NCBI GenBank assembly: GCA_020634565.1
Contig: JACKBN010000020.1
Location: forward strand, 885 to 64,884
Source: Ardenticatenaceae bacterium
GTDB taxonomy: Bacteria; Chloroflexota; Anaerolineae; Promineifilales; Promineifilaceae
Direction of reading: 5' to 3'
Length of the DNA: 64,000 bases
In this document: one piece after another, positions 1 through 64,000 of the stretch
Layout of the letters: each line of letters begins with the position of its first letter
Numbering within the stretch: position 1 is the first letter of the stretch
Notes under the pieces: model-generated
Told to the model about the DNA's origin: nothing
Database searches by the model: none
The model's input: only the letters and a program-made list of their open reading frames with translations
Made by a program: the position numbers and the translations under genes

Positions 1-584
1 ATGTCGGTTTCCACAAAGCCGGGGGCCACCACGCCGACAAAAATGTTGTAAGGGGCCAAATATTTGGCCAGCGACTGGCTCATGGCGTTTAGCCCCGCTT
101 TGCTGGCACCGTAAGCGGGGGCGGTGGGTTCGCCCCTAAAGGCGCCGCGCGAAGAGACGTTGACGATACGGCCGTATCCCTGCTTAATCATCTGCTGCCC
201 TACCAAATAACTTAAATTGGCCACGCCCACCAAATTGACCGCCAGCGTGTTGTGCCAGGCTGTTTGCCACGCCGCAAAGCTCACCTCAGCCAGCGGATGC
301 TCTTCATAAATGCCCGCATTGTTGACGAGGATGTCGATACGGCCGTACTTTTCCACCACCTCCGCTACCAACCGCTCCAACGCTGCCGGATCAGCCATTT
401 CTGCCTGGGCGATGTGATGGTTACTGCCCTGGAGAGAAGCGGCCGTTTCTTCTGCAGCGGCCCGATTGCTGTGGTAATGCACCACCACTTGTGCCCCGTG
501 CTGGGCAAACTGCTGGCAAATTGCCCGCCCAATGCCGCGCGACCCACCAGTGACCAAAACTACTTTTTCTGAAAAATCCATCAT
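1..584 (-). CDS. Short-chain dehydrogenase/reductase (FabG-like); 3' end runs off the left edge of the window
   Basis: Absent from the ORF track because it is open to position 1. My translation of the minus strand from ATG 584 (or 581) gives [22 protein letters not shown]...VNNAG...YGASK. These are the TGxxxGxG Rossmann motif, NNAG and the YxxxK catalytic motif. GGAG sits at 588-591 on the minus strand. Confidence 0.8.
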
Positions 585-680
585 CTTCTCCTGAAAGATT
601 ATTGTTTAAGTTCTACAGATATAAAAAAGACCTGCCAGAATTTTGCTCTGGCAGGTCTGGAATTTTAGCCAAACGGCCGT

Positions 681-3600
681 TTAATTCTCATCGCTGGGTG
701 GTTGGGTGGGGGCAACGGCTTCTGTGGGCGCGATTTCGGTTGGCTCAACGGCCGTATCTTCTGCCCCATTATCTGTTTCTTCAACCGGTTCCTCACTGGC
801 GTCGTCAGCCGGTACATCCTCCTCTAGCGGTTCCTCGATCGATTCTTCATCTGGCGCGTCGATTGGTTCCTCTTCAAACGGCTCTTGCACAGGCTGTTCG
901 ATGGGTTGCGCGGGCGCAAAAATCGGCCCATATTTCAGCACGCGGTTATTGTTCGCATCCGCAATGTAGATGTTGTCCTGGTCGTCAATAAAGATGCCGT
1001 TGATCAGGTTAAAGCTGTTGACATCGGTGCCAAACTGGCCGAACTTGCCGATGTAGTTGCCCAGTTGGTCAAAAATCAGCACGCGCGGTGTTTCCGGATC
1101 CGTCACGTAAACGCGACCGCCGCTGTCAACTGCCAGGTATGGCTTGTTGTTCACCGAGCTATTGGCGGGCCAGCCTGTGTCCAGCAGCCATTCATTCACC
1201 GGAATCAAATCGGAAGTAAGCTGTTGGATACGGCCGTTCCACGTATCGGCCACGTACACAAAACCGTCATTCCCCACGGCAATGCCTACCGGCTCATAAA
1301 ACTGCCCCAGGGCCGAGCCAAACTGGTCGCCACCTGCGCCCAGTTGGCCAATGAAGTTGCCGCTCTGGTCCATCACCTGAATGCGATGATGACCGGTGTC
1401 AGTAACCAGCACAAGGCCATCGGCCGTCAGCGCCACTTCACGGGGTCCAAAGAACAGTCCCAGCCCCTGACCAGACGGATCGTCTGGCGTGTTGCCTGCC
1501 ATGCCATAGCTGCCTACAAACTGCCCATCCAGCGTAAATTTCTGCACGCGATGGTTCCAGGTGTCGGCCACATACACAAAGTTGTCGTCGATATTCAGAC
1601 CCCACGGGCCTTGCCCGTCGGCGCTAAACTGGCCACTGCCTGTGCCGGTGCTGCCGAAGCTGTCTACAAATTGGCCGTCGGCGTTGAACACCTGTACCCG
1701 CTGGTTGCCAGAATCGAGCACGTAGATACGGCCGTCGGCGCTCACCGCCACGTTGCGCGGAGCAGATAGTTGGTCATCGGCTGAGCCAGCCACGCCGCTG
1801 GGGTTGATAACCAGCGAAGGCAGTACGGAAATTTCGCCTTCTTCATAAGGCGGTTCCAGACTGCTAGCCCCCACAGCTTCCAAACCGTAATCCCAAAGGT
1901 CGGCCAGCACGTCGCGGCGGATGTAGAGGCGCAAATCGTCTCGCAATGGCCATTGGCCATCCGTCAGCGTGCCGCCAAACACCTGACTGTACTTGCTAAA
2001 ATCGCGGTAGAAGAAGATGTCCCACATGGCTTCACGCACGTTGGGATTTAACAAGCCGCGCCGCTCCTGGCCCTCTGGTCGGTTCGGGTTGCCCAGAATG
2101 GCGGCCCAATTAATGTTGCGATAATCCTCCATCGGCCACCAGAGGTAGGTGTAGGTGCGATAGGTGTAATTACTGCCCAAGATGCGGTCTACCTCATCCC
2201 AATTGCTGCGGCCCACCAGCACCACCGGAGATTCGTTCAGGGTGGGGGATGGACTTTCGCCGAAGTAGGTGCTGTTGGGATATTCACGCATGTACCAGGT
2301 GAACGGCCAGGAAACGCCGCTGCCGCCAAAGGCTACCCGAATGCTTTTGTCGCCGTTGAGCCGCATGGACAGGGTTTCGAGTTGATCCAGCACCATGCTT
2401 TTGGCTGCGGGTGCGCCGTGGGCATACACCATAAATTCGCGGGCATAATCGGCATTGGGCCAGCTGGATAAATACATGAAGCGCACGGTAAGCAGGCTCA
2501 GCAGGGTAAAGATGCTCAATACGACGAGGGGCCGGCGGAGACGGCCGTTTACCTCCTCCCGTACTTGCTGCCAGAACCAGAACACCACCGCCGCCAGTAC
2601 AATGCCGCCCAATACCTGACCCAGCTGGGTTAGATTATTGAGCTGCTGGTTGCCTAGCTGCACTTTGCCTAGCAAGACGGGTCCCAGCGCCACAAAAACG
2701 GAAATGATCAGCCCTAGCGTCAGCCCGGCAAACAGCAGCGCCTGCCGCGAGACTAGCTCGCGCCAATGAATATCTTTGAACCGCTCATTGATGTACCAGC
2801 CTGCCAGCAGCCCCATAGGAATGACAAAATGGGTGCTCAGCCACGGCATCTTTTCTCCGGCGATGCTGTAGGCTGCCCAGGTAAGCACGAGCCACCAGCT
2901 CACAAAGGCCACAAACTCGCACATAATGTCGCGGGCCAGCAGCTCCATCAGATTTGTCTCCACTCCATGGGCGCGCATAATTTGCCCCCGCCGAATGAAG
3001 AACCAGACCAAAATCGCCACGCCCAAAATGAGCAGCCCGATTAAAATGCCCGGCAGGCGGCTGATTTCCTGGCCGCTGAATACGTTATCCAGATTGAACA
3101 CCCAGTTTCCCAAACTGTAGGCAAGCAGGGCGATGAGAACGGCCGTAAGCCAGTACCCCGTCACCTGATTCAAACGCTGTTTGATTAGCCAAAAGCGAAT
3201 AGCCAGCAGCGAAAAGATCAGCGGCAAGAACTCATAGAAGGGCACCACAAAGAAGTAGTAGAAAGGCGGCTGATTGCCGCGCGCCACCTCCTGCTGCTCT
3301 AGCCAGTAGCCCAGCGAGCCAATCGTACCGCTAAACCAGCCATCCCGAATGTTGGTGAAAACGGAGGTGTACAGCACGAAGAAAATAACGTGGTAAATGA
3401 CGGCAGCAATAATCCAGCGGCGCCGATCCCACCACAGCCCGACCAAAATGGCTGCGGCCAGAGTGAAGACCAGAAAGAGTATCGTCAAAAAGAGGGAGGA
3501 ACCGACAAAATCACCCCAGCAGGTGGCGTTAAACGCGCGGCCAAAGAAAATTTGCACCGACGACATCGCCTCCTGCCCCGGCAAGAAGCAAGTTGCCATG

Positions 3601-4655
3601 GGGTTGCTGTCTTCCAGCGGTTTGCCCCCGGCAAGCACCACAAATAGCGGCGCTGCCATTGGCAAAATAAGGGTGGTAAACAGCAAAATCAGGTCAAACT
3701 CCGCGTAGTTTTTCAAAAACGGCCGAAAACGAGCCGCCATCCAAAATAAACCACCAGCCAGGGCAAAGATGCCCACAATTTCCACCCAGCCGAGCCGCTG
3801 TTCCACAATCGTGAGCGCCTCGTTGGTAGACGAAACAAAGGCATCTTCTACAGGATCGGCCGCAAAAACGCCGCTGTCTTCGGACAAAACGGGTTCTTCC
3901 ATTTGGGTCGCAAATCGCTGCCCCAGAAGCCCGCCGCTGAGCATGAGTAGCCCCAGCAGCACCAGCAGCACGGGCGAGGTGAGCCTGTCCAGATTGTTAC
4001 GCAGCCACGGGGCCATCCAAATTTGGGGCAGCAGGCGCAAAATCAAAAAGCTGCCAAAGATGGCCACGTAAATAAACGACACTTCCTTGGTGGAAAACAT
4101 GAGCGCATTACCCGCGGCAAACCACCACAAATATTTATCTTCCCGCGTCTGGAAGTAATGCCAGATGGCGATGAAAATAATCATCGCCCAGACGATCACG
4201 TAAATGTCGTGGCGAATGTAGCGTGAGTAGTAGGTGAGGTAAGGCGAAATGAGGAAGATGAAGCTGGTGGCCAGCGCGCCCACCTTGCCAAGCCAGGGCC
4301 GCAAAAAGTAGGGCATGGCTACTAAAATGATGCCAAAAATTGCCACGGGCACCCGCGCCGAAAAATCACTATCGCCTAACAGCCAGTAAAAAATGGGCGT
4401 GATGTGGAACAAAAAGGGGCCGTGCATTAGCGGCGTGTGGTTGAAACCATCCCCGATAAAAAATTGGTACGAAAATTGGGTGTGCAGGCTTTCATCATGG
4501 CTCATGACGCGGTCGCCCAGCCCCCAGAAGCGGGTCACAATGGCCACCAGCAAAATCGCGAGGTAAGCTGCTTTTTCCCAATCAATGTACAGGCTGGCCA
4601 GCAGCGGCCGGGATAGAAAATCGGTTTTCGGTTCAGGCGTTGTCAATTCACTCAT
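681..4655 (-). CDS. TIGR03663-like GT-C (PMT/ArnT-like) polytopic membrane protein fused to a six-bladed NHL beta-propeller and an acidic tail
   Basis: 1324-aa ORF. The N-terminal ~900 aa are highly hydrophobic and carry the DE (MSHDESLH) and HGP (PLMHGPFLF) motifs described for TIGR03663. Residues ~925-1245 hold six NHL-type blades (NQRVQVF, NHRVQKF, HHRIQVM, NGRIQQL, TPRVLIF, NNRVLKY). The last ~80 aa form a Glu/Asp/Pro-rich tail. Confidence 0.7.
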   Translation of the reverse strand: MSELTTPEPKTDFLSRPLLASLYIDWEKAAYLAILLVAIVTRFWGLGDRVMSHDESLHTQFSYQFFIGDGFNHTPLMHGPFLFHITPIFYWLLGDSDFSARVPVAIFGIILVAMPYFLRPWLGKVGALATSFIFLISPYLTYYSRYIRHDIYVIVWAMIIFIAIWHYFQTREDKYLWWFAAGNALMFSTKEVSFIYVAIFGSFLILRLLPQIWMAPWLRNNLDRLTSPVLLVLLGLLMLSGGLLGQRFATQMEEPVLSEDSGVFAADPVEDAFVSSTNEALTIVEQRLGWVEIVGIFALAGGLFWMAARFRPFLKNYAEFDLILLFTTLILPMAAPLFVVLAGGKPLEDSNPMATCFLPGQEAMSSVQIFFGRAFNATCWGDFVGSSLFLTILFLVFTLAAAILVGLWWDRRRWIIAAVIYHVIFFVLYTSVFTNIRDGWFSGTIGSLGYWLEQQEVARGNQPPFYYFFVVPFYEFLPLIFSLLAIRFWLIKQRLNQVTGYWLTAVLIALLAYSLGNWVFNLDNVFSGQEISRLPGILIGLLILGVAILVWFFIRRGQIMRAHGVETNLMELLARDIMCEFVAFVSWWLVLTWAAYSIAGEKMPWLSTHFVIPMGLLAGWYINERFKDIHWRELVSRQALLFAGLTLGLIISVFVALGPVLLGKVQLGNQQLNNLTQLGQVLGGIVLAAVVFWFWQQVREEVNGRLRRPLVVLSIFTLLSLLTVRFMYLSSWPNADYAREFMVYAHGAPAAKSMVLDQLETLSMRLNGDKSIRVAFGGSGVSWPFTWYMREYPNSTYFGESPSPTLNESPVVLVGRSNWDEVDRILGSNYTYRTYTYLWWPMEDYRNINWAAILGNPNRPEGQERRGLLNPNVREAMWDIFFYRDFSKYSQVFGGTLTDGQWPLRDDLRLYIRRDVLADLWDYGLEAVGASSLEPPYEEGEISVLPSLVINPSGVAGSADDQLSAPRNVAVSADGRIYVLDSGNQRVQVFNADGQFVDSFGSTGTGSGQFSADGQGPWGLNIDDNFVYVADTWNHRVQKFTLDGQFVGSYGMAGNTPDDPSGQGLGLFFGPREVALTADGLVLVTDTGHHRIQVMDQSGNFIGQLGAGGDQFGSALGQFYEPVGIAVGNDGFVYVADTWNGRIQQLTSDLIPVNEWLLDTGWPANSSVNNKPYLAVDSGGRVYVTDPETPRVLIFDQLGNYIGKFGQFGTDVNSFNLINGIFIDDQDNIYIADANNNRVLKYGPIFAPAQPIEQPVQEPFEEEPIDAPDEESIEEPLEEDVPADDASEEPVEETDNGAEDTAVEPTEIAPTEAVAPTQPPSDEN

Positions 4656-4662
4656 AATGGGT

Positions 4663-5199
4663 TCAATTTGTGTTGATAGGTACGGCCGCTACCGGTGTGG
4701 GCAGCGGAGCCGGGGTGGAGACAAAGTTGGGTTCCGGGTCGATTTGATTGGCGACGGCCGTTTCCGTCGGCATGGTTTGCGTTTCGGTGGCGGCGGGCGT
4801 GTGGGTCATGGTAGCGGTGACGGCTACCATGGTGGGTGGCGAGGGCCATAACGATGGTTGGCCACTGTTAAACCACTGCCAGCCGCCCAACAGGAGCACT
4901 AGCAGCATGGCCACCGCTGCTAACTGCCGTCCCAGCTGGCGTGGGGCAAAGCCTGGCCGGGTCAACCGCCGGCGCTGCGGTATGGTGGGCATGAGCTGTA
5001 CAAGACGGCCGTTATCAACGGCCGTTGCCTTTTGCAGCGTTTGCCTGACCAACTGCCCCACCTGCCGCTCCTGCTGCACCGCAGCCAGCAGGTCCGGGTC
5101 CTGGCTGATTTGGCGCGTTAGCAGCTCTTTTTCCGCAGCGGGCAGCAAATCAAGTACATACTCTTGCAGCAGATTTGTGCTTTTTCTGGTTTCAATCAT
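4663..5199 (-). CDS. Anti-sigma factor, single-pass membrane protein
   Basis: Lies immediately downstream of the ECF sigma gene. I prefer the start MIETRK at ATG 5199, which overlaps the sigma stop (ATGATTGA, 8-nt overlap). It has one hydrophobic helix (LAAVAMLLVLLLGGW) and a Pro/Thr-rich C-terminus. The 210-aa ORF-track start at 5295 would overlap the sigma gene by ~100 nt. Confidence 0.6.
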   Translation of the reverse strand: MIETRKSTNLLQEYVLDLLPAAEKELLTRQISQDPDLLAAVQQERQVGQLVRQTLQKATAVDNGRLVQLMPTIPQRRRLTRPGFAPRQLGRQLAAVAMLLVLLLGGWQWFNSGQPSLWPSPPTMVAVTATMTHTPAATETQTMPTETAVANQIDPEPNFVSTPAPLPTPVAAVPINTN

Positions 5200-5809
5200 G
5201 ATCAATCTGCTCCGCCAGCGCCTCACGCAAAGCGTTGTGCGCCAGCCGCATACGGGATTCGGCAGTTTTAGTGGGAACCCCCAAAATCTGGCCAATTTCC
5301 ACGTAAGTTAGCCCTTCGTAATAACGGAGAACGGCCGTTTCCCGCAGTTTGCCCGATAAATTCTGGATGGCCGTCCACACGACTTGTTGTTTTTCCGTGA
5401 GCTGCATCGTCTCGGCCGGCGTAGGCAAATCGCGATCCGGCACATCTTGGCTCATCAACTGCCCTAGTGAAAACGTGGGCAGCCATTTGCGCCGCCGTTT
5501 GTTGTGGCAGCGGCTCACGGCAATCTGGTACAGCCACGTTTTCAACGCCGATTTGGTGGCGTCATACTGCTCCAGGCGACGAAAAGCATACTCAAAGCTG
5601 TCTTGCAGGACTTCTTCGGCATCTTCCCGATTTTGCAGAAGGCTGTAACAGAGCCGGTAAATCATGCCTGCATACAGGTTATACAGCGCCACATAGGCCG
5701 TATCCTCACCCGCCAGGCAGCGCCGGATGAGCGCCTGACTTTGTTCGTCGGCGTAAGCAGGCGTTTCTGCGCCCCACGAGAGGGTGCCTTGGTCAGAAAA
5801 GGAACTCAT
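5192..5809 (-). CDS. ECF-type RNA polymerase sigma-70 family factor
   Basis: 205 aa. The region 2-like segment reads LYNLYAGMIYRLCYSLLQNREDAEEVLQDSFEYAF. The region 4 HTH reads LRETAVLRYYEGLTYVEIGQILGVPTKTAESRMRLA. Confidence 0.85.
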   Translation of the reverse strand: MSSFSDQGTLSWGAETPAYADEQSQALIRRCLAGEDTAYVALYNLYAGMIYRLCYSLLQNREDAEEVLQDSFEYAFRRLEQYDATKSALKTWLYQIAVSRCHNKRRRKWLPTFSLGQLMSQDVPDRDLPTPAETMQLTEKQQVVWTAIQNLSGKLRETAVLRYYEGLTYVEIGQILGVPTKTAESRMRLAHNALREALAEQIDHD

Positions 5810-5810
5810 G

Positions 5811-7568
5811 TTAGGGCTGTCCTGTCAATAAATCGGCCCGCACCCAGACAATAGCCCGCTCTACAGGCGTAACGGCCGTTGACTGATGAAAAAACCACCA
5901 GCGAAACGTGTCGTACAAAATGGTGGCCGATGGTTCGGTAAGTGGGATGGGCTCCAGACGACGGATGGCAAAATCGCTGCCGCTGTAGCTGACCGCCAGC
6001 GGTAACTCTGGATTGGCGTCGGTAATGATGACTTGCTGCGTGGGTGTTAGCGGCAGCGCGTTGAGCTGCTCCAGTCGGGGATACGCTTTCAGGTACCAGT
6101 TCAGCGCTGGCACATCCAGCCGGGTGCCAATTTGCAGCTGCGTATCAGAATTGGCCAGCTGGCGCGATAGGTCGCGCACGGTGGTATCCAGTTCACGCAT
6201 GGCAAAATCGGTGCCGCTGCTGACCCAGCGCTCGCGCGGATCGTTGGCTCCTTCCTGAGCCAGCCACCAGCCCGTGCCCCATTGGTAAAAAATGAAAAAG
6301 CCTAAAATGGCCAGCAAGACGCCTTGGGGAACGGCCGTTGCATCTTCCGAAGCGGTAAAATAGAGCACCAGCCCCACAAACAAAATCGCAAGCAAAATGA
6401 CCATCAAATAAATGGTGCTTTCTGGTGGATTTACCTGGGCTACACGTCCTAGACGAGCCAGATTTACAAAAATCACAAACGAACCAGCCAGGCTGACACC
6501 CCCAGCAATGCCGCTGAACCAATCCCACCGGCGACGCCAGGCCGCGTTGACCAAAATGCCTGCCAGTAAGGCGGTGGGCAGGGTGAGCAGCAGCCCATTG
6601 CTCATGAACGCTCGCTGGAGCAGCAGCAAAATCAGGCTGCCGCTGAACCAGTAAACGGCAAACAGCGCCAGCGGTTCACTGCGGACGATGGCCCAAATCA
6701 GGCCAAAAACCACCAAAATGACAAGGGCTGGCTCGTACCGCACAAAAGCGAGCAGCGGATCGAGCGTGCGTGCGCCGCCGAACTGCTGGAACCATTCGCC
6801 TGCGAGTCTGGCAGAACCACCCAACCCATTGGGCAGCAGCAAAAAGAAGGTGCTTAGCAGCAAAAACACGACGATGCCAACGGCCGTTCCCTTGCGCCAG
6901 TTGGTTTCGGTTGGTTTTACGTGCCAGCCTTCTACAAATAGCGAAAGCCCCAGTCGCGAATGGACAAACCAGGCTAGCAGCAGCGTCACCAGGCCGCTGT
7001 AAAACAGGGCTGAACTGCTCAATCCGAGGCCCAGCGCGGCAAAAAGCGTGTACAGCCAGCGCACAGCGGCCGTTTCCTGGTAGCGAATAAAGGCGATGAG
7101 CATCAGCAGCAGGGCAAAGAGGGCAATGCTGTCGCCGCCAACCGTGCGGGAGGCAATGGTATTGAGGGGAGAGATGGCCAGGAGAACGGCCGTTACCAAC
7201 GCGCCTTGGGTGCCCAAACGATGGCGCAGCAGCCAGGGCAGGCCGATGAGACCCAGCCCAAACAAGGCTGGAATCAAGCGCATGACCCCATCGCCAAAGC
7301 CAAACACCTGTGTGAGCCAGCTGGTGAGGCTGAAATAGGCAGGGCTTCCTGCGCTGAGCATGACCGCCTCCGGCTGCCAGAAGCGCCACACTTCCAGCGC
7401 TTGCAGCGCTTCAGTATCGGACAAGGGTAGATAACCAAGATTTGCCAGGCGCAAAATCGCGGCTGCCAGCAAGATAAGGCCCAGCAAGCCATCCGCCAGC
7501 GTCAGGCGGCTTAACCAACCGCTAATCGGCTGGCGATGCACAACTTGGGGCGTGGGAAATATCTCCAA
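5811..7568 (-). CDS. Divergent GT-C-fold (PMT_2/ArnT-like) polytopic membrane protein
   Basis: 585 aa with more than 10 hydrophobic segments. The N-terminal arrangement (LRLANLGYLPLSDTEAL) resembles the loop-1 acidic motif of GT39/GT83 enzymes. A hydrophilic C-terminal domain of ~150 aa follows. The stop is 1 nt from the sigma gene start. Confidence 0.5.
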   Translation of the reverse strand: MEIFPTPQVVHRQPISGWLSRLTLADGLLGLILLAAAILRLANLGYLPLSDTEALQALEVWRFWQPEAVMLSAGSPAYFSLTSWLTQVFGFGDGVMRLIPALFGLGLIGLPWLLRHRLGTQGALVTAVLLAISPLNTIASRTVGGDSIALFALLLMLIAFIRYQETAAVRWLYTLFAALGLGLSSSALFYSGLVTLLLAWFVHSRLGLSLFVEGWHVKPTETNWRKGTAVGIVVFLLLSTFFLLLPNGLGGSARLAGEWFQQFGGARTLDPLLAFVRYEPALVILVVFGLIWAIVRSEPLALFAVYWFSGSLILLLLQRAFMSNGLLLTLPTALLAGILVNAAWRRRWDWFSGIAGGVSLAGSFVIFVNLARLGRVAQVNPPESTIYLMVILLAILFVGLVLYFTASEDATAVPQGVLLAILGFFIFYQWGTGWWLAQEGANDPRERWVSSGTDFAMRELDTTVRDLSRQLANSDTQLQIGTRLDVPALNWYLKAYPRLEQLNALPLTPTQQVIITDANPELPLAVSYSGSDFAIRRLEPIPLTEPSATILYDTFRWWFFHQSTAVTPVERAIVWVRADLLTGQP

Positions 7569-7620
7569 TCTCTACTCTCCGATTTTCAATAATCAGTGTT
7601 CAGGCCAATTACTGACTTAC
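7561..7620. repeat. Short spacer built from family A/B repeat words
   Basis: CTCCAATCTCTACTCTCC...TAATCAGTG...AATTACTGACTTACTG lies between the GT-C-like gene start and the YYY-1 stop. Confidence 0.5.
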
Positions 7621-10289: not shown

Positions 10290-10297
10290 AGAATTAC

Positions 10298-13741: not shown

Positions 13742-13762
13742 CTACTTGAAAATCGTACCCTT

Positions 13763-46322: not shown

Positions 46323-46335
46323 GAGATTATTCCTT

Positions 46336-47883: not shown

Positions 47884-48187
47884 CGTGATGCTCCTCAAGA
47901 TTTCGTTGAGACCGGACAGGTTTACTGCGTTGGCTGCTGGAGAAGATATTTTGCTCGGCAAAGTTTCTGAAGTGAGACGTTGCTTTGTAAACCTGTCGGG
48001 TCTTGTAAATTTCGTATGATGAACAGTTTAGCGGGCGAATCTGGAGAAGTTATGGAGAAGTGTGGTAGATAGTTTGCAAATGATGCCGGTTGGGCGACAG
48101 CGTGAGAAGGGCAGCAACTGCCGGTCGCCGTTTGGGGGAAACGGCCGTAACCAATTCATGGTTTTCAAGTGCTCGGAGGTCACCAAT

Positions 48188-48841: not shown

Positions 48842-48982
48842 AGAGTTGCTTGTCTTGCTCCTTGTTCTTGCAAAAGAACGAAAAAAGTTTCTCGCAGTAT
48901 AGCGCAACTGAGGCGCTTTTCAAGCAATTTGGACGCAACGGGAACGGCCGTTTTTGCGTACAGTTTGCCAGGAGTGTGAGAA

Positions 48983-50891: not shown

Positions 50892-50901
50892 AGGTAATTG
50901 G

Positions 50902-50968
50902 GGAGATTGGAGACTGGAGATTGGAGATTAAAAAGTCTCCAGTTTCTAATCTCCAATCTCCAATCTCC
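50902..50968. repeat. Family A heptamer hairpin at the GT2 / CrtD-like junction
   Basis: A 15-bp perfect inverted repeat pairs 50916-50930 with 50947-50961. A nested GGAGACT/AGTCTCC pair is also present. The right arm encodes the last residues (LEIGD) and the stop of the GT2 ORF. Confidence 0.9.
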
Positions 50969-52657: not shown

Positions 52658-52695
52658 AAGAAAGTGTGCAAGTGAGCAAGTGAACTGATTACCGA

Positions 52696-53505: not shown

Positions 53506-53508
53506 TTT

Positions 53509-54330: not shown

Positions 54331-54334
54331 GTTT

Positions 54335-54441
54335 TTCCGTTATCGGTAATCCGTTATCGGTAATCCGTGAACCGTGAACGGTAATCGGTAAGCGTTTTTA
54401 TCGTTTACCGACCACCGATTACTGATTACCGTTTACCGAAC
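54335..54441. repeat. Family B heptamer inverted block filling the cyclase/crtI spacer
   Basis: The left block reads CCGTTAT CGGTAAT CCGTTAT CGGTAAT CCGTGAA CCGTGAA CGGTAAT CGGTAAG. The right block reads CGTTTAC CGACCAC CGATTAC TGATTAC CGTTTAC CGAACAC. Confidence 0.85.
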
Positions 54442-55956
54442 ACTGACAGGCGCGCCCATGATCAAATCTTCCGCAATTTTGCTGGAGGAGAGCACACCGG
54501 GCAAACCTGCGCCGGGGTGCGTACCTGCACCGACAAAGTAGAGATTGTCGATATCTTCCGAGCGGTTGTGCGGACGGAACCAGGCCGACTGCGTCAAAAT
54601 TGGTTCGACGGAGAAGGCGGAGCCGAGATGGCTGTTGAGATTCCCCTGGAAGTGGCGGGGGTCAATGTGCCGCTCGGTGACGATGTTGGCCTGCAAATCG
54701 GGCAGGTAATTGTCTTCCAGAAACTGCATGATGGCGTCGCGATATGGCTTGGCCGTTTTGTCCCAGTCGATGCCGGAACCAAGGTGCGGCACGGGGGACA
54801 GGACGTAGAATCCTTCGTGCCCTTCGGGCGCAATGCTGGGGTCCGTCGTCGTGGGCATGTGTAGGTAAAGCGAAAAGTCATCGGACAGCTGCTTGTTTTT
54901 GAAGATGTCTTGTAGCAACCCTTTGTACCGTTCGCTAAGAATGATGTTGTGGTGGGCCAGATGGCCGTCGTTGTACCGCTTTTTCGTCCCAAAATAAATC
55001 ACAAAGAGGGACATGCTGTAGCGCGTCAGGTTTTTGTAGCGGAAGTCGGAGTTGCGCAGGCTGCGGTTTTTGCTGTCGATGAGTTGGGTGTAGGTGAAGG
55101 CGACATCAGCGTTGGAGATGACGTGGTCGGCATAATGCACGGTGCCGTCCTTGAGACGAATGCCAGTGGCGCGTTTGTTTTCTACGAGAATTTCATCTAC
55201 TTCGGCGTTGAGGTGGAAACGGCCGTTTAACTCCTCAATCAAGCGTCCAAAGGCACGTACTAAGGCTCCGGTGCCGCCCATCACGTAATGCACACCCCAT
55301 TCCCGCTCCAGGTAATGGATCATGGCGTAAATGGAGGTGGTGTCGAACGGGTTGCCGCCCACCAGCAGCGGATGGAACGAGAAGCAGCGGCGCAAAAATT
55401 CATTCTCGATGAACTGCGAGGCGTAATTGTAGACCGTTTTGTGCGACTGCAAGCGCAGCAGGTCAGGAATGACGCGAATCATGTCATTGACAGACAAAAA
55501 TGGTTGGTCGGCCAGCTCCACGAACCCTTTTTCAAAGATCGCTTTGGTGGTAGCCATAAACCGCTTGTACCCTTCACGGTCGGCCCGGTTCCACTTCTCA
55601 ATCTGGTTGAGGATGAATTCTTCGTCGTTGTTGTAGTCTAGATAACGGCCGTTATGGTCAAAGATGCGGTAGAACGGATCGCAGGCCACAAACTCCACGT
55701 AATCTTCCCGCTTGCGCCCCGCCAGCTCAAAAATATCGTCGAACATGAACGGCGCGGTGATGACCGTCGGGCCAGCATCAAACTTGAAGCCGTCTTGCTC
55801 AAAGACGTAGGCCCGGCCACCGGGCTGGTCCAATTTCTCAAAAATATCGACCTGGTAACCTTGTGCGGCCAGCCGTGCGGCTGCGCCCAAACCACCAAAT
55901 CCACTGCCAATGATGATAACTTTTTCTTTCATGATTTCGCTTTTCTGGGAGTACAT
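54433..55956 (-). CDS. crtI: Phytoene desaturase CrtI
   Basis: 507-aa ORF. The likely true start is [22 protein letters not shown] at ATG 55932. The C-terminal motif reads [18 protein letters not shown]. Confidence 0.88.
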
Positions 55957-56083
55957 CCCAGGCTAAAGTTGGGGGATGTTTTACTCTACCCCGCTGGTAA
56001 AATGATATTTTTGCAGCAGGAAAAAGTGATGGCTCCACCCTTTTCCCTACTTCCCTCTTTTTACTTCGATTAAATAAGTTTAT

Positions 56084-56141
56084 AGAAGTTCAACTTTTGG
56101 CTAATTACGGCGTTGCGTCGTTGAGAAAAAGTTGAACTTCT
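56084..56141. repeat. Perfect 15-bp inverted repeat in the crtB/crtI spacer
   Basis: AGAAGTTCAACTTTT (56084-56098) pairs with AAAAGTTGAACTTCT (56127-56141) around a 28-nt loop. Confidence 0.85.
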
Positions 56142-56156
56142 CTCTTAACACCGTAT

Positions 56157-57230
56157 TTACCCTTGCGGCACCGCATACAAATTTTCAGTTTCGATGGGTG
56201 ATTGATGCGAACAGGCAACCAGCGCTGGCTGGGTGTGGACCGGTTTGTCTACCAAATGGATGTACTGGTTGGTTTTGGAACGCCACCAGATGCCGGGCAG
56301 ATGGGCCATTTTTTCTTGCTTGGTTGTGTGGGCGCGGCGGCTGAAAACATCGTAATCGTGCGCTTCGATGTCGTCCAGGATGGCACGGTACAGTTCGGCG
56401 GCGGCGGCAATGGCGAAACGGCCGTTTTTACCCAACATAGCCACCCCTGGCAGCGCCTCCGCGTAAAGCTGCCGCGCCCGCCGAATCTGGAAGCGCATGA
56501 AGGCGCGCCAGCGGTGGTCGATAATGCCTGCGGCAATATCCTCTTCTGTCAGATTAAACATGCGTAATTCTTCAAGGGGGAGGTAGAGACGGCCGTTTTC
56601 CCAATCTTCCTGCACATCACGCAAAATATTGGTAAGTTGCAGCGCTACGCCCAGCTTAATGGCATAAGGAATCGCTTTGTGCCCGTCGTAACCCACAATG
56701 TGCATGGCCATCAGGCCCACTGTGGAGGCCACGCCATAGCAATATTGGGCCAGCTCACTGAACGTTTCGTAACGGCTGTGAACCAGGTCAGATGTGACCC
56801 CGTCTAGCAACTGCTCCGCATAGCGGCGCGGAATGTTGAAATTGGCGCGCGTATCGGCCCAGGCCAGCGCCACCAAATTGTAAATGGGGGGGTGATTAGC
56901 CAAACTTTCTTGCCGCCATTGCAAAATGCGCTGGTGCTGATTTTCGCTTTCTTTGTCTACCAAATCATCACTAACGCGGCAAAAAGCGTACAAAGCACGC
57001 GCAGCTTGCCGTTGGTCTTTAGGAAGAAGTCCAGATGCCAAATAAAACGTGCGGCTGTGATGTTTGGTGATGACGGCGCAATATTCATACGCTTGGGCCA
57101 GGTGTTCGCGGCCATTATAAACAGGCTCATTAATGCTCTCATGATCCAGGGCGTGATGAGCTAAGCGCAGTAAACGTGTTTCCCAAACTGTTGGTTCTAA
57201 AGTTTCTAACGCCATCTCTTCCTCCTTCAA
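56157..57230 (-). CDS. crtB: Phytoene synthase CrtB (squalene/phytoene synthase family)
   Basis: 357 aa. The Asp-rich motifs are [12 protein letters not shown] and [18 protein letters not shown]. Confidence 0.88.
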
Positions 57231-57309
57231 AAACTGATTGCCTCAAAAATAAGTGCGCAAGTTGTCGGGGGCGTCTAAATAGAAAACAGCTTTTTAGAAG
57301 CTTGAGAAG

Positions 57310-57338
57310 ATGTTAGCCCACTCAATTTATTTTGTCAA
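57310..57338 (-). promoter_or_regulatory. Sigma-70-like promoter candidate for the carotenoid operon
   Basis: On the minus strand, TTGACA (57338-57333) is followed by a 17-nt spacer and TAACAT (57315-57310), about 80 nt upstream of the crtB ATG. Confidence 0.3.
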
Positions 57339-57487
57339 GGTATTGTTTATATTTTGGATTGATTTTTGCGGTTTTCGGCCTAGTTCGCCTTGAATAGTTG
57401 TGCAAAACATGCGTTTGAACAGGTTTTGTAGAGCGTGCCTGGAAAATGTGCAGGTAGCAAATTGCCTCAAACGGCCGTTACAAATCC

Positions 57488-59608
<2,121 letters not shown>

Positions 59609-59647
59609 TTTTTTTAGTTAAAAGTAAAAAGTAACAAGTGGCACTTT

Positions 59648-60550
59648 TTACGCCTGAATTTTTGGTAATAAGTGGGCTACCACGTCGGCATCGTTTTGCG
59701 GAGTGGGGACATTGTTGAAAAGCTGCCATGTTTCGGTGTGGCTGGCGGTGGCGTCTGGTTCTAGCCGCACCAGCGGTGCGAGGCTTTCCAACTCCATGAT
59801 CTCGTTGTTGGTGAACAGTTCAGCCGAACAGTTGCGGTCTGGATAGTTAGCCTGTGGATCGTGAGGCGGGAATGTTTTGAGGAAGAAACGGCCGTTGTGT
59901 ACATATCCCAACCAACCCGGAAAATTGTCGCTGCCGATCTTTTGCGGTGTGGCTGCCTCTGGGTCTTGACGCAGCAAAATGAACTGCTCGCCCCAGGTCC
60001 AGCGTGGGTCCGCCATGTTGGTGTAGGCCCAGGTGACGAGGTTTCCGGTGGGCAGCAGGTTGCCTTCGTGACTGCCGCGCGGGGGAAGAGGGAATACGGC
60101 CGTTCCCCCCGTCGTCATCACCGAGAGCGCCCAAGGCGCCAGCTCTACAGCCCATGGATTCAGATTTTGCACGGTGTGCGTTAACGTGACTTTCGCCTCT
60201 TGCGGGTCAAGGGCAATGTCGATGATTTTTTGCATGCGTGTAGTGGTTTCTACGGGGGCGATGAAGCGGACAAACGCGCCATGATCTTCCACCGTGACCG
60301 GATTGTTATCCGGGTAGTATGTGCGCGGCTGCTGTTCAGGGGCCAGCCAGAAGCGGTGGCCACCATAGCTCTGCCATTCGGCATCCCCTGTGCGGCCAAC
60401 CTGGCCCGCAAGTTCGGCAAAGATATTTTCTCCGCCGACAAAGCTGAAGTGAATAATGCGGGGGCCAACATCGGCCGTCACGACAAGTTCGATCTGTTGG
60501 TTGCTGAGCTGAATGCAGTTTTCCCAGCCGAGAAAGGATATCTGTTTCAC
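59648..60550 (-). CDS. Hypothetical protein, DUF4380-like (aldose-epimerase-like fold suspected)
   Basis: 300-aa ORF with good coding appearance (GGHRFWLAPE). The family assignment is from memory and weak. Confidence 0.4.
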   Translation of the reverse strand: MKQISFLGWENCIQLSNQQIELVVTADVGPRIIHFSFVGGENIFAELAGQVGRTGDAEWQSYGGHRFWLAPEQQPRTYYPDNNPVTVEDHGAFVRFIAPVETTTRMQKIIDIALDPQEAKVTLTHTVQNLNPWAVELAPWALSVMTTGGTAVFPLPPRGSHEGNLLPTGNLVTWAYTNMADPRWTWGEQFILLRQDPEAATPQKIGSDNFPGWLGYVHNGRFFLKTFPPHDPQANYPDRNCSAELFTNNEIMELESLAPLVRLEPDATASHTETWQLFNNVPTPQNDADVVAHLLPKIQA

Positions 60551-60854
60551 ACTAACTCCTTGGAATCTTTTTTAGCGCAGAGTTACAGAGGTGCAGAGGT
60601 AAAAATGGGTGCTGCGTCTGTACCGCACCCGGAAATTTTACTATGAATGGCGGGGAAATGCAGGAGAACGGCCGTAATCCCAAAATTCCCTTTTAAGCAA
60701 CCGCCCCCTCACTTGTCATTTCGAGGTCCTCCGAGAAATCCCATTCAAAATTCACCTAAAGTTACCTTCATTAAGTAAGCCATTCTCAATTTCACTCCCA
60801 CCCCCAATCCTCACTTAAATCCTGCCATTTTGGGTTCATTCCACACGCGACGCC

Positions 60855-60917
60855 CTAAGTGCCGACGTAGAGGGTGCCGCTAAGGCTGCTCATGATGTAG
60901 AAGTAGTATTGTTTCAT
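60855..60917 (-). pseudogene. Remnant of a small GIY-YIG (UPF0213-type) nuclease gene
   Basis: The minus-strand translation MKQYYFYIMSSLSGTLYVGT* matches the characteristic N-terminus of small GIY-YIG proteins. Shifted frames downstream still read RRVW and NPKWQDL fragments. Confidence 0.45.
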
Positions 60918-61005
60918 GGTTTGGGTGGCAGTTGATTGGGATTTCTCCCGATGGTCGAAATGACAAGAGTGTGTTGTGTTGCTTTGAGTTTTTCGCTTAC
61001 CAAAA

Positions 61006-61033
61006 TCACCTTGTCACCCTGTCACCTTGTCAC
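61006..61033. repeat. Family C octamer tandem overlapping the stop of the ABC-2/GldG gene
   Basis: TCACCTTG TCACCCTG TCACCTTG TCAC. The TGA stop at 61030-61032 lies inside the last unit. Confidence 0.8.
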
Positions 61034-63120
61034 AAACGCTTCCGGCGCGAAACCCACACCCATACGCCCGCCAGTGCCAGCAGACCCGGCGTGAGGAAAA
61101 TGCTAACCAATTGCAGCAGCGTGAGCTGGCTTTGGGTGATGGTCACCTGTCGCGGGATCGATTCGCGGGCGGAGAGTTGAATCGAGACGACGTCATCCAC
61201 CAGCCAATTGGCAGCATTTTCAAAGAGGAAGCTATTGCCGCCCTGCTGAATGAAGCTGTTGCTTAGGAAATCGGTGTCGCCGAAGACGACGAGGCGGGCG
61301 CCGCTGGTGGTGTTGAGCGCGCTCAAGGCGACGGTCAGTTGGCCGGCAGCGTCTTCTGCGTCTGGGGAGACTTCACCGGCATTGATCATCTGCTCAAAGT
61401 TGGTTTCGCCCCAAGCCAGTTCGCTAGTGGTGATGAGATTTACGGCCGTTACATCCCCCGGTAGTTCTGTCGCAATGGAGCGGGCCACGTTGAAAATGGT
61501 GCCAAACTGCGCCAAATCCTGAGTGATGGGGCTGTCACCGTATTGTGCCCCGATGAACGTGAGGCCAATTGTTTGCCCCGCCTGCGCCAGCGAAGCGTCG
61601 ATAATCAAGTCATTGCGCAGAGTGATGCCCCAGCTATCTTGCAGCCAGGCCAGCAGTCCGTCATCTTCGGCAGCGATGCGACCTTCGGTATCGACTGCGT
61701 CGCGGGCCAGGAAGAGGGCGCCGCCGCTGTCTACGTAGCGGGTGAGGGCGTCCAGTTCGGCAGCGGCCAGCGGGGCTTGCTGATCAATCAAGAAAACGGC
61801 GCTGGCGTCGGCTGGAACCTCGCCTTCGGTGAACAAATTGAGCGATTGGATGGTGAAGCCGCTTTCTTGCAGGAGGGTAACGGCCGTTCCAATCCCCTCT
61901 TCGCTAAAATCTTGCCAATCCCGCTCGCCGTGCCCCGTGAGGAAGTAGGCGATTTTGACAGTGGGATTGAGCGTGCGCACCAGGGCGGTATGCAAATCCC
62001 GGTCGGTGAGGGTGGACGCTTTGGCGAAGCTGCCATCATCACGGGTAAAGACCAGCGTCCCAGCAAAAGAAAGATCATACTGCTCCGCCAGCAGCGGGTT
62101 TTCATTGGGATCGATAAACTCATAGCTGAGCTGGTCGCTGTACGCCTGCATCGTTTGCAGGGCGGCTTCCGCCTGGCTTTGCTGCAAGGCGGTTTCGGCC
62201 GTGTAAAAACCGATAACGTGAATAGGCTCGTCTAAACTTTGCAGCAGCGTGACGGTTTCTGGCAGCGGGGTGAGGGCGTTGTCGGCGGTGGTATCGTAGC
62301 GCCAGCCAGGGTTTTGGAAGGTGAAGACGTAGAGCAGGCCGAAAATGGCGATCGTTCCCGCCAATTTTGCCCAATCCAATGTGGCCAATCGCCCCCGCTT
62401 GCTTTTGAGGATGAGCGTGGTGGCTAGCAGGAAAACGGCCGTTATCGCCACAAAATAGAGCCCATCCTTTGCCAGCAGCACGCCGCGGAAAAAGTTGTCT
62501 TGGTGGTTGGCCAGAGAGAGTTCGGTTAGGAGGGTAACGGCCGTTTCGCCCACAGCAAACGCCTGGGCCACAATGGTGAGCAGATACAGCAGCAGCGTGA
62601 TGCCTAGCGCCACGATGAAGGCCACAATCTGGTTTTCCGTGAGCGCAGAGGCCAGCAGGCCAATGCCCAGCAGCGCTGCGCCGTAGAGCAGCACGCCCAG
62701 ATAGGCGGACCAAATCGGGCCAGGGTCAGGATTGCCAAAGATGAACAGAATGAGCGGAAACACAAAGGTGAGGGCGGCGGTAAGCGCGTAAAACAAGAAT
62801 CCCGCCAAAAATTTGCCCAGCACCAGTTCGCCATCTCGGATGGGTAGGGAGAGCAGCAGTTCCAGCGTGCCGCTGCGCTGCTCTTCGGCCAGCAGGCGCA
62901 TGGTGAGTGCAGGCGTGGCAAACAGATAAAGGAAGGTGAACAGTCCGAGCACGCTTTGTACGTCTAGCGGTAATACGCCGGGTTGGGTGGCATGAACGAA
63001 CAGCTCGGAGGCAAAAATGTAGCCGGTTAGCAGTAGTAGTACCACGCCAAAAACGTAGGCCAGCGGCTGGGCAAACAGGGCACCCAGTTCCCGCCGGGCA
63101 ATTTGCCAGACGTTATGCAT
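61030..63120 (-). CDS. Fused ABC-2 permease (GldF-like) plus GldG-like extracytoplasmic domain protein
   Basis: 696 aa. The N-terminal ~240 aa form a six-TM ABC-2 permease. A large soluble domain follows, of the ABC_transp_aux/GldG type, with a C-terminal TM anchor. Confidence 0.65.
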   Translation of the reverse strand: MHNVWQIARRELGALFAQPLAYVFGVVLLLLTGYIFASELFVHATQPGVLPLDVQSVLGLFTFLYLFATPALTMRLLAEEQRSGTLELLLSLPIRDGELVLGKFLAGFLFYALTAALTFVFPLILFIFGNPDPGPIWSAYLGVLLYGAALLGIGLLASALTENQIVAFIVALGITLLLYLLTIVAQAFAVGETAVTLLTELSLANHQDNFFRGVLLAKDGLYFVAITAVFLLATTLILKSKRGRLATLDWAKLAGTIAIFGLLYVFTFQNPGWRYDTTADNALTPLPETVTLLQSLDEPIHVIGFYTAETALQQSQAEAALQTMQAYSDQLSYEFIDPNENPLLAEQYDLSFAGTLVFTRDDGSFAKASTLTDRDLHTALVRTLNPTVKIAYFLTGHGERDWQDFSEEGIGTAVTLLQESGFTIQSLNLFTEGEVPADASAVFLIDQQAPLAAAELDALTRYVDSGGALFLARDAVDTEGRIAAEDDGLLAWLQDSWGITLRNDLIIDASLAQAGQTIGLTFIGAQYGDSPITQDLAQFGTIFNVARSIATELPGDVTAVNLITTSELAWGETNFEQMINAGEVSPDAEDAAGQLTVALSALNTTSGARLVVFGDTDFLSNSFIQQGGNSFLFENAANWLVDDVVSIQLSARESIPRQVTITQSQLTLLQLVSIFLTPGLLALAGVWVWVSRRKRL

Positions 63121-63177
63121 TGGTGGCCTCGCGGGGGATTTTTAACGCAAAGGCGCAAAGGCGCAGCGGTGGGGTGT

Positions 63178-64000
63178 TCATGAGGGCACCTTGTTTTCTT
63201 CGAAGGGAATGGGGGCGGTTTGGGCTTCCTTGAGCTTTTCCAGGAAGAGGGTTTCCAGACTGAGCCGGTTGGTTTTCAGTTCGAGTAGGCCCCAATTTTG
63301 AGACACGGCCGTTTCGGCCACCAGTTGTTTCGTTTCATCTCGGCCGTCGAAGCTGAGCAGGAATTGGTTGGGGGTGTCGGGATAAACGGCCGTTACGCCC
63401 GCAATGCTTTGCAAAATGTCGTAGCTGTTTTCGGCTGGATTGGCTAGCTGGAGGGTGAGCTGGCTGCTGCCCTGTTTGATTTGGCTCATGGGTAGGTCGG
63501 CCTGAATACGGCCGTTCATCAACAAAATCACCCGGTTGCATACTTGCTCTACCTCGGCCAGCAGGTGCGTGCTTAGCAGCACCGTGCGCTGGCGGCCCAC
63601 CGTGGCAATCAGTTGGCGAATGTCCACAATTTGCGCCGGGTCGAGGCCAATCGTTGGCTCATCGAGGATGAGTACATCTGGATCATGCAGCAGCGCTTGC
63701 GCCAGGCCGACACGCTGGCGCATCCCTTTAGACAGTTTGCCGATGAAGCTTTCGGCGCGGTCGAGCAAGCCGACCGCTTCCAGCACCTCGTCCACGCGGT
63801 CCCACACGTCGTCCAGCCGCCGCACCTGGCCGATAAAGTGCAGATAGCCTTCCACCGTCATCTCCGGGTAGAGGGGGACGGTTTCAGGCAGGTAGCCTAA
63901 ATGCCGTCGTGCCTGCAAACTGTCATTGACGGTGTGGTGTCCGGCGATAAATGCTTCGCCAGCGCTGGGCGGCAGATAGCCGGTGAGCAGGCGCATGGTG
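63178..64000 (-). CDS. ABC transporter ATP-binding protein (GldA-like); 5' end outside the window
   Basis: The frame is open to the window edge and the Walker A motif is missing. The signature LSKGMRQRVGLAQAL, Walker B LILDEPTIGLD and H-loop STHLL are present. Confidence 0.85.
   Translation of the reverse strand, partial: TMRLLTGYLPPSAGEAFIAGHHTVNDSLQARRHLGYLPETVPLYPEMTVEGYLHFIGQVRRLDDVWDRVDEVLEAVGLLDRAESFIGKLSKGMRQRVGLAQALLHDPDVLILDEPTIGLDPAQIVDIRQLIATVGRQRTVLLSTHLLAEVEQVCNRVILLMNGRIQADLPMSQIKQGSSQLTLQLANPAENSYDILQSIAGVTAVYPDTPNQFLLSFDGRDETKQLVAETAVSQNWGLLELKTNRLSLETLFLEKLKEAQTAPIPFEENKVPS

Follow-up and report, generated by a model that had tools for sequence, protein, structure and literature searches.

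The palindrome ACGGCCGT as a hyperabundant octamer in DNA of an Anaerolineae lineage and its likeness to cyanobacterial HIP1

The stretch of DNA described here (64,000 bases, in the following called the window) contains exactly 134 copies of the palindromic octamer ACGGCCGT, all of them exact. Its housekeeping genes encode a glycosyltransferase, DUF2298 membrane proteins, an NHL-repeat protein, SelA, TsaD, and DnaE; in addition, there are a phosphoenolpyruvate (PEP)-utilising phosphotransferase, two-component systems, a HlyD/MacB efflux set, a carotenoid cluster, Tex, and ABC transporters. On the curated gene map, 93% of the window is coding. The window stems from an Anaerolineae lineage near Candidatus Leptofilum: when the Tex-like protein served as a probe on a set with a single genome for each species, the closest matches were metagenome-assembled genomes (MAGs) of Anaerolineae with 90%, 88%, and 87% identity, the one at 87% being labelled Candidatus Leptofilum. 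An exact look-up of the window protein SelA in the contig collection had no match.

Genes of the window and positions of the copies

All copies and the other features referred to are listed in Table 1. The copies occur in genes of both orientations, and concerning their relative position within genes, no clear pattern was found. The six spacer copies had already been named in a first-pass annotation of the same DNA and do lie outside the called genes; all of them are single, with no inverted pairs. At the two abutting copies, two different motif frames stand side by side within one gene. The cluster of variants that the annotation had placed in the HlyD region at 45600-46140 consists of four GCGGCCGT one-off variants. 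Two of the intergenic copies lie on either side of the gene for a SET-domain protein of bacterial type, which is a putative lysine methyltransferase.

Table 1. Coordinates of the palindrome copies and of other features in the window and, where an L label is given, in related or mobile DNA
Feature	Position	Strand	Remarks
ACGGCCGT field	1..64000		134 copies, 128 in coding sequence and 6 in spacers; largest gap 1633 bp
ACGGCCGT starts	168, 339, 673, 748, 1230, 1728, 2541, 3139, 4754, 5005, 5018, 5331, 5872, 6331, 6880, 7186, 7710, 7938, 8167, 8629, 8794
ACGGCCGT starts	10219, 10968, 11490, 11537, 12372, 13391, 13518, 13686, 14804, 15311, 15769, 15865, 16068, 16206, 17823, 18823, 19639, 19948
ACGGCCGT starts	20750, 22196, 22350, 22410, 22485, 23075, 23441, 23582, 24647, 25107, 25486, 25566, 25749, 26399, 26866, 27084, 27793, 28566, 28798, 29002, 29955
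ACGGCCGT starts	30316, 31888, 31959, 32651, 33198, 34054, 34509, 34919, 35217, 35571, 36046, 36227, 36697, 36931, 37301, 37654, 37939, 38962, 39419, 39691, 39915
ACGGCCGT starts	40466, 40785, 41148, 41542, 42061, 42122, 42416, 42424, 43835, 44230, 44271, 44755, 45244, 46877, 47411, 47771, 48141, 48318, 48436, 48944, 49755
ACGGCCGT starts	50080, 50130, 51088, 51394, 51994, 52084, 52889, 53255, 53309, 53555, 53965, 55219, 55645, 56418, 56589, 57471, 57855, 57909, 58058, 58575, 59196, 59547, 59888
ACGGCCGT starts	60096, 60668, 61442, 61880, 62435, 62537, 63305, 63386, 63508
Intergenic copy	673..680		outside every called gene
Intergenic copy	31959..31966
Intergenic copy	48141..48148		context gggGAAACGGCCGTaac
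Intergenic copy	48944..48951		context gGGAACGGCCGTTtt
Intergenic copy	57471..57478		immediately downstream of Tex gene
Intergenic copy	60668..60675
Two abutting copies	42416..42431		ACGGCCGTACGGCCGT; in response-regulator gene 41821-42534 (minus strand); read D-G-R-T-A-V
Copy pair 13 bp apart	5005..5025		ACGGCCGTTATCAACGGCCGT
One-off variants	45607..46128		GCGGCCGT/ACGGCCGC at 45607, 45709, 46021, 46120; in HlyD-family gene 44703-46508 (minus strand)
Tex-like gene	57488..59608	minus	six copies (57855, 57909, 58058, 58575, 59196, 59547); Pfam match to Tex domains
Syntenic block	49435..63999		with L001, L010, and L002; about 80% nucleotide identity; used for site conservation
PMT_2/DUF2298 genes	681..15366	minus
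DNA polymerase III alpha	25911..29121	plus	junction of two frames at about 27415-27500
SET-domain protein	48245..48907	minus
Carotenoid cluster	49428..57230	minus
Methyltransferase, L213	8303..9151	minus	mobile element
Methyltransferase, L229	72..995	plus	mobile element
Methyltransferase, L229	9698..10996	minus	mobile element
Methyltransferase, L231	2960..4684	minus	mobile element
Methyltransferase, L237	9018..9839	minus	mobile element
Restriction-modification cassette, L347	10143..12251		chromosomal context

Abundance, reading frames and flanks of the palindrome

The density of ACGGCCGT in the window amounts to 2.09 copies per kb (2094 per Mb), with a mean spacing of 476 bp. From the base composition (guanine plus cytosine (GC) content 55.6%) about 1.45 copies are expected, i.e., observed/expected is about 92, and dinucleotide-preserving shuffles (n = 100) yielded 1.17 copies on average and 4 at most, such that 134 was reached by none of them. 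Counted on both strands, 268 occurrences stand against 2.4, 4.3, 9.9, and 27.6 expected under Markov models of order 1, 2, 3, and 4, respectively. Under each of these models ACGGCCGT is the top outlier (at order 3 with z = 82 among all octamers), and the other strong 8-mer outliers of the window all overlap with it. The runner-up among palindromic octamers has 7 copies, and GCGATCGC, the word of the highly iterated palindrome (HIP) of cyanobacteria named HIP1, has 4, which is the chance level. Within 848 kb of related motif-rich DNA, 1825 copies of ACGGCCGT compare with 68 of the next palindrome.

The enriched unit is the octamer and not the EagI-type hexamer at its centre, since the hexamers left over after subtraction of the octamers are near expectation: A...T flanks are present on 134 of the 181 CGGCCG hexamers in the window (74%), and the 47 without them compare with 37-55 expected. 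At the six inner positions of the core there is almost no tolerance. Concerning mismatches in the coding part of the window, sequences with one mismatch among the eight positions are over-used about 3-fold, whereas those with two are at expectation; A-A-V is encoded as GCGGCCGT in 7 cases (2.0 expected) and T-A-[ADEG] as ACGGCCG in 17 (6.1 expected).

These counts agree closely with the first-pass annotation, which had estimated about 134 copies, or one per approximately 480 bp (exactly, one per 478 bp), against one or two by chance, and only about four of GCGATCGC. Its statements that three quarters of the CGGCCG hexamers carry A...T, that the next flank is mostly A/T, and that the unit is the 8-10-mer rather than the hexamer hold as well, and the outlier analysis with Markov models that it had suggested, run here on the window for orders 1-4, puts ACGGCCGT far ahead. 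Its example coordinates are correct except for two that were off by one (7711 instead of 7710 and 22197 instead of 22196).

The 128 coding copies are read in three frames, as T-A-V (frame 0, 83 copies), as N/D/Y-G-R (frame 1, 37 copies), and as x-R-P-x (frame 2, 8 copies). A synonymous-codon shuffle within each gene, which keeps the proteins and the codon usage, gave 19.7 ± 3.7 copies (maximum 30), and a shuffle of codon order gave 2.2. Nearly every peptide context able to hold ACGGCCGT does hold one: 83 of the 86 T-A-V tripeptides are spelled with the motif (12.8 expected), as are 37 of the 39 [N/D/Y]-G-R tripeptides (1.6 expected), the latter with the Arg codon CGT, which is rare elsewhere in the window (13% of Arg codons). 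The peptides themselves are affected, too. T-A-V is found 86 times, about 10-fold over the 8.8 derived from amino-acid composition, which means that the motif has reshaped proteins, and N-G-R is found 22 times (2.9 expected); for the reversed tripeptides, taken as at or below expectation, the counts are 14 for V-A-T (8.8 expected) and 1 for R-G-N (2.9 expected). In spacers the density is 1.4 copies per kb, and in coding sequence 2.1 per kb. The use of three frames, the spacer copies, the codon saturation, and the shuffle controls together place the signal in the DNA and not in the protein, as the first-pass annotation had maintained, and the enrichment survives the shuffled-codon control that had been named there as one of the tests by which it could fall; the peptides cited there (RETAVLRY, DGRTAVH, WNGRIQQ, and ADGRIYV) are indeed present. 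ACGGCCGT is a signal of double-stranded DNA, and not a peptide, RNA, or mobile repeat.

Outside the core, the next base is A in 90 of the 134 window copies on the left and T in 91 of 134 on the right. In frame-0 copies, in which both flanks are third codon positions (background 15% A and 19% T), A is found at -1 in 78% and T at +1 in 72%, and C before and G after the core are virtually excluded. A weaker symmetric preference, which is partly frame-dependent, extends to about ±4 (GGAA-ACGGCCGT-TTCC). Among 1821 sites in motif-rich DNA, complementarity between the two flanks shows little or no excess at ±2 to ±8 (largest z = 2.2, at ±4) and a small excess at ±1 (z = 5), which probably stems from the pooling of genomes of differing flank preference and from the search pattern. 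As there is no covariation of flanks beyond ±1, no hairpin or cruciform is under selection; the pattern is like that of a symmetric protein with a separate preference for each half-site. Across motif-rich DNA the core is invariant, and A at -1 ranges between lineages from 100% to a nearly uniform distribution of bases; in L003, the -1 flank is C in 40% of the copies.

Sites in related genomes and on mobile DNA

Six relatives (L001, L002, L010, L003, L004, and L005), with Tex identities of 69-90% and GC contents of 44-59%, carry 1.36-3.21 copies of ACGGCCGT per kb. Every other Chloroflexota locus compared has 0-0.2 per kb, and in other phyla 3 copies were counted in 820 kb. Neighbour-joining on Tex puts the genomes with the motif into one group in 167 of 200 bootstraps, which fits a single origin; the trait is confined to one Anaerolineae clade and appears to have arisen in it once. 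A scan of metagenomes yielded 60 more motif-rich stretches (324 kb, 672 copies, GC 0.44-0.64) from activated sludge, sediments, and other habitats. As a separate observation, CGGCCG is strongly avoided in the outgroup Anaerolineae and Chloroflexota loci L011, L009, L015, and L016 (0, 0, 3, and 3 occurrences, respectively, compared with 6-15 expected); in L011, CGGCCG is absent (about 10 expected) and GGCC is reduced to 44 (130 expected). This hints at EagI/HaeIII-type restriction systems in sister lineages without the motif.

How the sites arise can be followed in a codon alignment in which Tex of the window is compared with that of nine outgroups and of the six relatives with the motif; at nine positions the motif is present in at least one genome. 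The outgroups differ from the motif at 1-7 (usually 3-6) of its eight positions, and no insertions or deletions are found at motif sites. Several of them involve amino-acid replacements within conserved stretches (VAAV to VTAV, TATIYP to TTAVYP, NG[L/A/G]F to NGRF, and QTPEQ to QTAVQ). The whole clade has one site in common and all members but one share another, and further sites are limited to L003, to L004, or to the window and L010. According to this alignment, copies have been created singly by point substitutions, some of which changed amino acids; the comparison with orthologues that had been proposed in the first-pass annotation shows gain of sites by substitution. The pressure is strong enough to override some constraints in conserved proteins.

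Existing copies are kept at orthologous positions far beyond the background. Against L001, 26 of 29 sites are retained (0.90), whereas the proportion of all octamers that are fully conserved is 0.22; against L010, 15 of 23 (0.65, all octamers 0.20); against L002, 9 of 12 (0.75, all octamers 0.15); and against the more distant L004, 4 of 9 (0.44, all octamers 0.05).

On a sub-kilobase scale, the copies are spread more evenly than by chance. The coefficient of variation of the spacing is 0.77 in the window, a value that was as low in none of 2000 simulations (P < 0.0005); the largest gap is likewise short (P = 0.004), and the dispersion index per gene is 0.77. Even spacing is also found in relatives, with coefficients of variation of 0.63 in L001, 0.70 in L010, and 0.70 in L003.

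The palindrome is not restricted to chromosomal loci. Scans of the IMG/VR viral collection returned motif-rich contigs with a total of 357 kb and 825 copies (2.3 per kb). Several of the motif-rich contigs are genuine phages, among them a 49-kb contig (L086/L097) with large terminase, portal, primase, and DnaB-like helicase, a contig encoding terminase and capsid (L163), and a contig encoding head protease and capsid (L148). A 100-kb element, on which ParA, a transglycosylase, and a protein resembling FtsK/SpoIIIE are encoded, is rich in the motif in each of the four stretches sampled (L096, L171, L231, and L240). The clearest case of a phage and its host is the contig L163 and the locus L004, which have the same GC content and the same flank preference. 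That phages agree with their hosts fits a process to which all replicons of a cell are subject. A restriction-modification cassette in L347, in which a C5 methyltransferase adjoins an endonuclease of the BsuBI/PstI family, is of a different kind: its GC content is 0.45 (0.56-0.59 in its flanks), it contains 1 motif copy in 2.1 kb, it lies within a motif-free stretch of 2.5 kb, and by its low GC content and scarcity of motifs it looks recently acquired. As DNA of phages and plasmid-like elements is marked and this cassette is not, the mark is carried by long-resident replicons and not by recent arrivals. The PstI site CTGCAG itself occurs twice in the window, compared with about 19 expected from base composition.

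Further palindromes were encountered in viral DNA. In the viral contig IMGVR_UViG_3300040801_001003 (L241 and L223), CGTCGACG is present in 15 and 6 copies and ACGGCCGT in 11 and 6, respectively, and its host lineage may have a second iterated palindrome. CGAGCTCG, which contains the SacI core, reaches 0.75-1.7 per kb in the unrelated high-GC (66-70%) viral contigs L098, L133, L170, and L175 and may be another hyperabundant palindrome of a different host group.

Concerning other genes of the window, DNA polymerase III alpha is split into two overlapping frames (529 and 568 amino acids), with the change of frame near a run of five A (GCAGCGAAAAACCGC); this could be an indel from sequencing or assembly, a pseudogene, or a real frameshift. 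The carotenoid cluster, which is syntenic with L001 and L010, comprises two amine-oxidase-type desaturases, a glycosyltransferase, a PlsY-like protein, proteins with carotenoid synthesis and lycopene cyclase domains, and phytoene synthase. Near the beginning of the window lies a run of large genes for membrane proteins and glycosylation. It encodes a protein of 1324 amino acids that combines a PMT_2 domain with NHL repeats, a pair of DUF2298 paralogues (890 and 1147 amino acids), and two more PMT_2 proteins, and suggests a locus for glycosylation of the cell envelope.

Interpretation and comparison with known systems

ACGGCCGT is very probably an element of the HIP type belonging to one Anaerolineae clade. 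Full-text literature searches, which covered ACGGCCGT, the hexamer together with terms for palindromes, and elements resembling HIP in Chloroflexota, gave nothing relevant, in line with the first-pass statement that the octamer is not a described element; within the literature searched, this is an undescribed element of that type, with a new sequence and in a second phylum.

As an explanation of the whole, a clade-specific element that is read by a symmetric DNA enzyme or binding protein of the host, most likely one linked to a methyltransferase, is considered probable, if not strongly so. A host-encoded dimeric protein would recognise ACGGCCGT on all resident DNA, and its action would cause substitutions toward the motif to become fixed more often than substitutions away from it, whether through biased repair or conversion, through selection, or through a combination of these. 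The analogy with HIP1 suggests as the likeliest reader a methyltransferase-linked repair or recombination system acting on CGGCCG and/or on the central GGCC. The first-pass annotation had likewise suggested a possible link to a cognate methyltransferase, to a repair bias of the VSP type, or to recombination. Methylated sites might then constitute closely spaced marks of resident or kin DNA, used for strand discrimination in repair or for favoured recombination. That the ACGGCCGT site is methylated is an evenly balanced proposition, and any single functional model taken by itself is doubtful.

Motif-rich contigs of phages and plasmid-like elements encode five methyltransferases, two of the D12 class, two of the N6_N4 class, and one of the C5 class. 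As the D12 class includes a GGCC-specific enzyme in cyanobacteria (Elhai 2015), these methyltransferases of mobile elements are candidate modifiers of the motif centre. For the C5 enzyme, a search by sequence among the solved structures of the Protein Data Bank gave no clue to specificity.

Several points weigh against the explanation by a methyltransferase-linked reader. The window represents 64 kb of this genome, and Pfam scans of its substantial genes and motif regexes revealed no DNA methyltransferase, Vsr, or other candidate reader in it. In the 848 kb of motif-rich DNA, to which tblastn was applied with Vsr of E. coli and M.HaeIII as queries in addition to motif regexes on related loci, neither a Vsr homologue nor a methyltransferase of known CGGCCG/GGCC specificity was found, the chromosomes being too thinly sampled for these results to mean absence; the two C5-methyltransferases in this DNA belong to the PstI-family cassette and to a mobile element. 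Type II methyltransferases usually have no graded preference for flanks out to ±4, for which a DNA-binding protein is a better fit. At two of the six chromosomal loci (L005 and L002), spacing is not more even than random. Furthermore, the 14 cases of lost sites, in which the orthologue differs at one position, are too few for their substitution spectrum to point to a methylated cytosine, and site conservation alone cannot separate selection from a continuing conversion bias.

Among the alternatives, it is unlikely that ACGGCCGT is a signal for DNA uptake or kin recognition, in which a receptor at the surface or in the periplasm would prefer DNA with the octamer, and biased uptake followed by homologous recombination would, as a molecular drive, spread copies through the gene pool of the clade. 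The density of about 2 per kb, the intragenic copies in preferred frames with their distorted peptides, the lineage-specific flanks, the evenness of the spacing, and the lesser enrichment of one-off variants all resemble uptake signal sequences (USS) and DNA uptake sequences (DUS), and a recently acquired island without the motif would be expected, too; according to the literature, most Chloroflexota MAGs from activated sludge encode type IV pili, and the newest hypothesis on HIP1 proposes the same role. Known uptake sequences are, however, asymmetric, whereas ACGGCCGT is a perfect palindrome with symmetric flanks. Its spacer copies, being single, do not form the inverted pairs of terminators, phages with their own replication and packaging genes carry it at a host-like density that uptake does not predict, and no competence gene was found in the window or seen in the sampled DNA.

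It is also quite unlikely that the copies form an array to which an abundant dimeric protein, either associated with the nucleoid or organising the chromosome, binds and which is kept by selection for compaction or architecture. Such an array would account for the symmetric graded preference to about ±4 with its independent half-sites, as known from dimeric sites, for the even spacing, and for the conserved sites, and a role in nucleoid structure has been proposed for HIP1 (Xu et al. 2018). The invariant 8-bp core is nevertheless sharper than usual for nucleoid proteins, and the architecture of the host chromosome does not need a host-like density in the structural and replication genes of phages. 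The agreement between phages and plasmid-like elements and their hosts is hard to reconcile with a purely chromosomal or a purely uptake-driven role and better fits a protective or kin tag.

That the palindrome is a functionless, neutral by-product of a context-dependent bias in mutation or repair is improbable. Such a pure drive would mark everything that replicates in these cells, phages included, and spare recent arrivals; it would let copies arise by substitution, and a repair ratchet of this kind was put forward for HIP1 by Elhai. The bias would have to act, however, on eight positions and to override amino-acid constraints to the extent of the 10-fold excess of T-A-V, whereas known very-short-patch repair restores only C at deaminated sites and produces far smaller enrichments. 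The spacer density is not above that of coding sequence, and the more-even-than-random spacing, which a pure drive does not predict, argues against a drive without function.

An origin from protein composition or from codon and dipeptide usage (T-A-V accounts for two thirds of the copies, and both GCC and GGC are favoured codons), from a dispersed mobile repeat, or from faulty assembly is scarcely conceivable and was rejected, given the shuffles, the frames and spacers used, and the rare Arg codon, the lack of any conservation past about ±4 bases and of indels at orthologous sites, and the presence of the motif at the same positions in separately deposited assemblies.

With some reserve, it can be considered that the mechanism of HIP1 has originated a second time, independently and outside the cyanobacteria, with a methylatable N-CG-NNNN-CG-N' that a host system would read and imprint on every replicon, also on phages, as a clade-wide tag of kin DNA. 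If this were true, comparative genomics over two phyla could settle the function of HIP elements, and flank preferences would be a direct marker of phage-host relationships. HIP1 has been known for three decades, but its function is unsettled, and it has been studied in cyanobacteria only. The system described here, in another phylum, constitutes an independent replicate, by which the candidates for the machinery would be narrowed to genes co-occurring with both motifs. The rewriting of proteins, the even spacing, and the match of phages and hosts constrain the hypotheses here, and also those for HIP1 if the mechanism is shared. On the practical side, ACGGCCGT marks the DNA and the phages of an abundant lineage of wastewater filaments and could aid the binning of metagenomes, and the dense EagI/HaeIII-type sites that are predicted are relevant to cloning and methylome analysis.

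The similarity to HIP1 is the closest among known systems. The frequency of 2094 per Mb and the observed/expected ratio of about 92 lie inside both ranges reported for HIP1 (300-2700 per Mb and 55-228, respectively; Elhai 2015). Both elements are perfect 8-bp palindromes of the form N-CG-NNNN-CG-N' with an inner type II site (PvuI, CGATCG, in HIP1; EagI, CGGCCG, here), and both are found within genes in all frames as well as in spacers, arise by substitution, are conserved at orthologous positions above background (which for HIP1 has been argued to reflect selection; Xu et al. 2018), favour one-off variants, have palindromic flank extensions that differ between lineages, and apparently originated in a single clade. 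The first-pass statement that the octamer behaves like HIP1 is thus borne out by density, observed/expected ratio, substitution origin, conservation, lineage-specific flanks, and enrichment of variants. In some cyanobacteria other palindromes, e.g., GGGATCCC and CAGGCCTG, replace HIP1, and TCGATCGA co-occurs with it in some genomes; in the metagenome contigs L351, L245, and L284, which are presumably cyanobacterial, GCGATCGC reaches 1.5-2.1 per kb, i.e., a density of the same order.

Despite this general similarity, there are some differences: The sequence and the phylum (Chloroflexota, Anaerolineae) are not those of HIP1, so that ACGGCCGT is not HIP1 in the strict sense. In HIP1 (G-CGATCG-C), DmtC and DmtA methylate the inner CGATCG and GATC, and such cognate orphan methyltransferases are the main lead, whereas for ACGGCCGT none was found in the window. 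Current proposals for HIP1 are methyl-directed repair, nucleoid structure, and a tag for DNA uptake or kin. In addition, host-like densities of ACGGCCGT are documented for contigs of phages and plasmid-like elements, and the evenness of ACGGCCGT is on a sub-kilobase scale, whereas HIP1 has been described with a periodicity of 10-90 kb, a scale beyond that of the 64-kb window.

With the USS of Pasteurellaceae and the DUS of Neisseriaceae, ACGGCCGT has in common a frequency of approximately 1-2 per kb, a mostly intragenic location in preferred frames with effects on peptides, clade-specific dialects of the flanks, even spacing, accumulation by point mutation, and few copies in acquired DNA. These sequences are asymmetric 9-12-mers that are recognised by known proteins of competence and that in terminators often form inverted pairs, whereas ACGGCCGT is palindromic, with single spacer copies and full density in phages. 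Chi, the recombination hotspot of RecBCD/AddAB, to which HIP1 was likened in a transformation study, is also a short word in excess that has to do with how a cell handles its own DNA. It is, however, asymmetric, orientation-dependent, strand-skewed, about ten times rarer, and modestly over-represented, and a palindrome has no orientation. The Dcm sites of E. coli (CCWGG) are palindromes that gain copies by biased mismatch correction, i.e., very-short-patch repair, also in phage DNA; this effect is small and limited to the deaminated cytosine, whereas ACGGCCGT is driven at all eight positions and about 100-fold. Repetitive extragenic palindromic (REP) sequences and bacterial interspersed mosaic elements (BIME), Correia elements, and miniature inverted-repeat transposable elements (MITE) are likewise dispersed, palindromic, and highly repeated. 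They are units of 30-150 bp that are mostly intergenic and transposed, whereas ACGGCCGT defines only about 8-16 bp, lies within genes in 96% of its copies, and spreads by substitutions and not by insertions.

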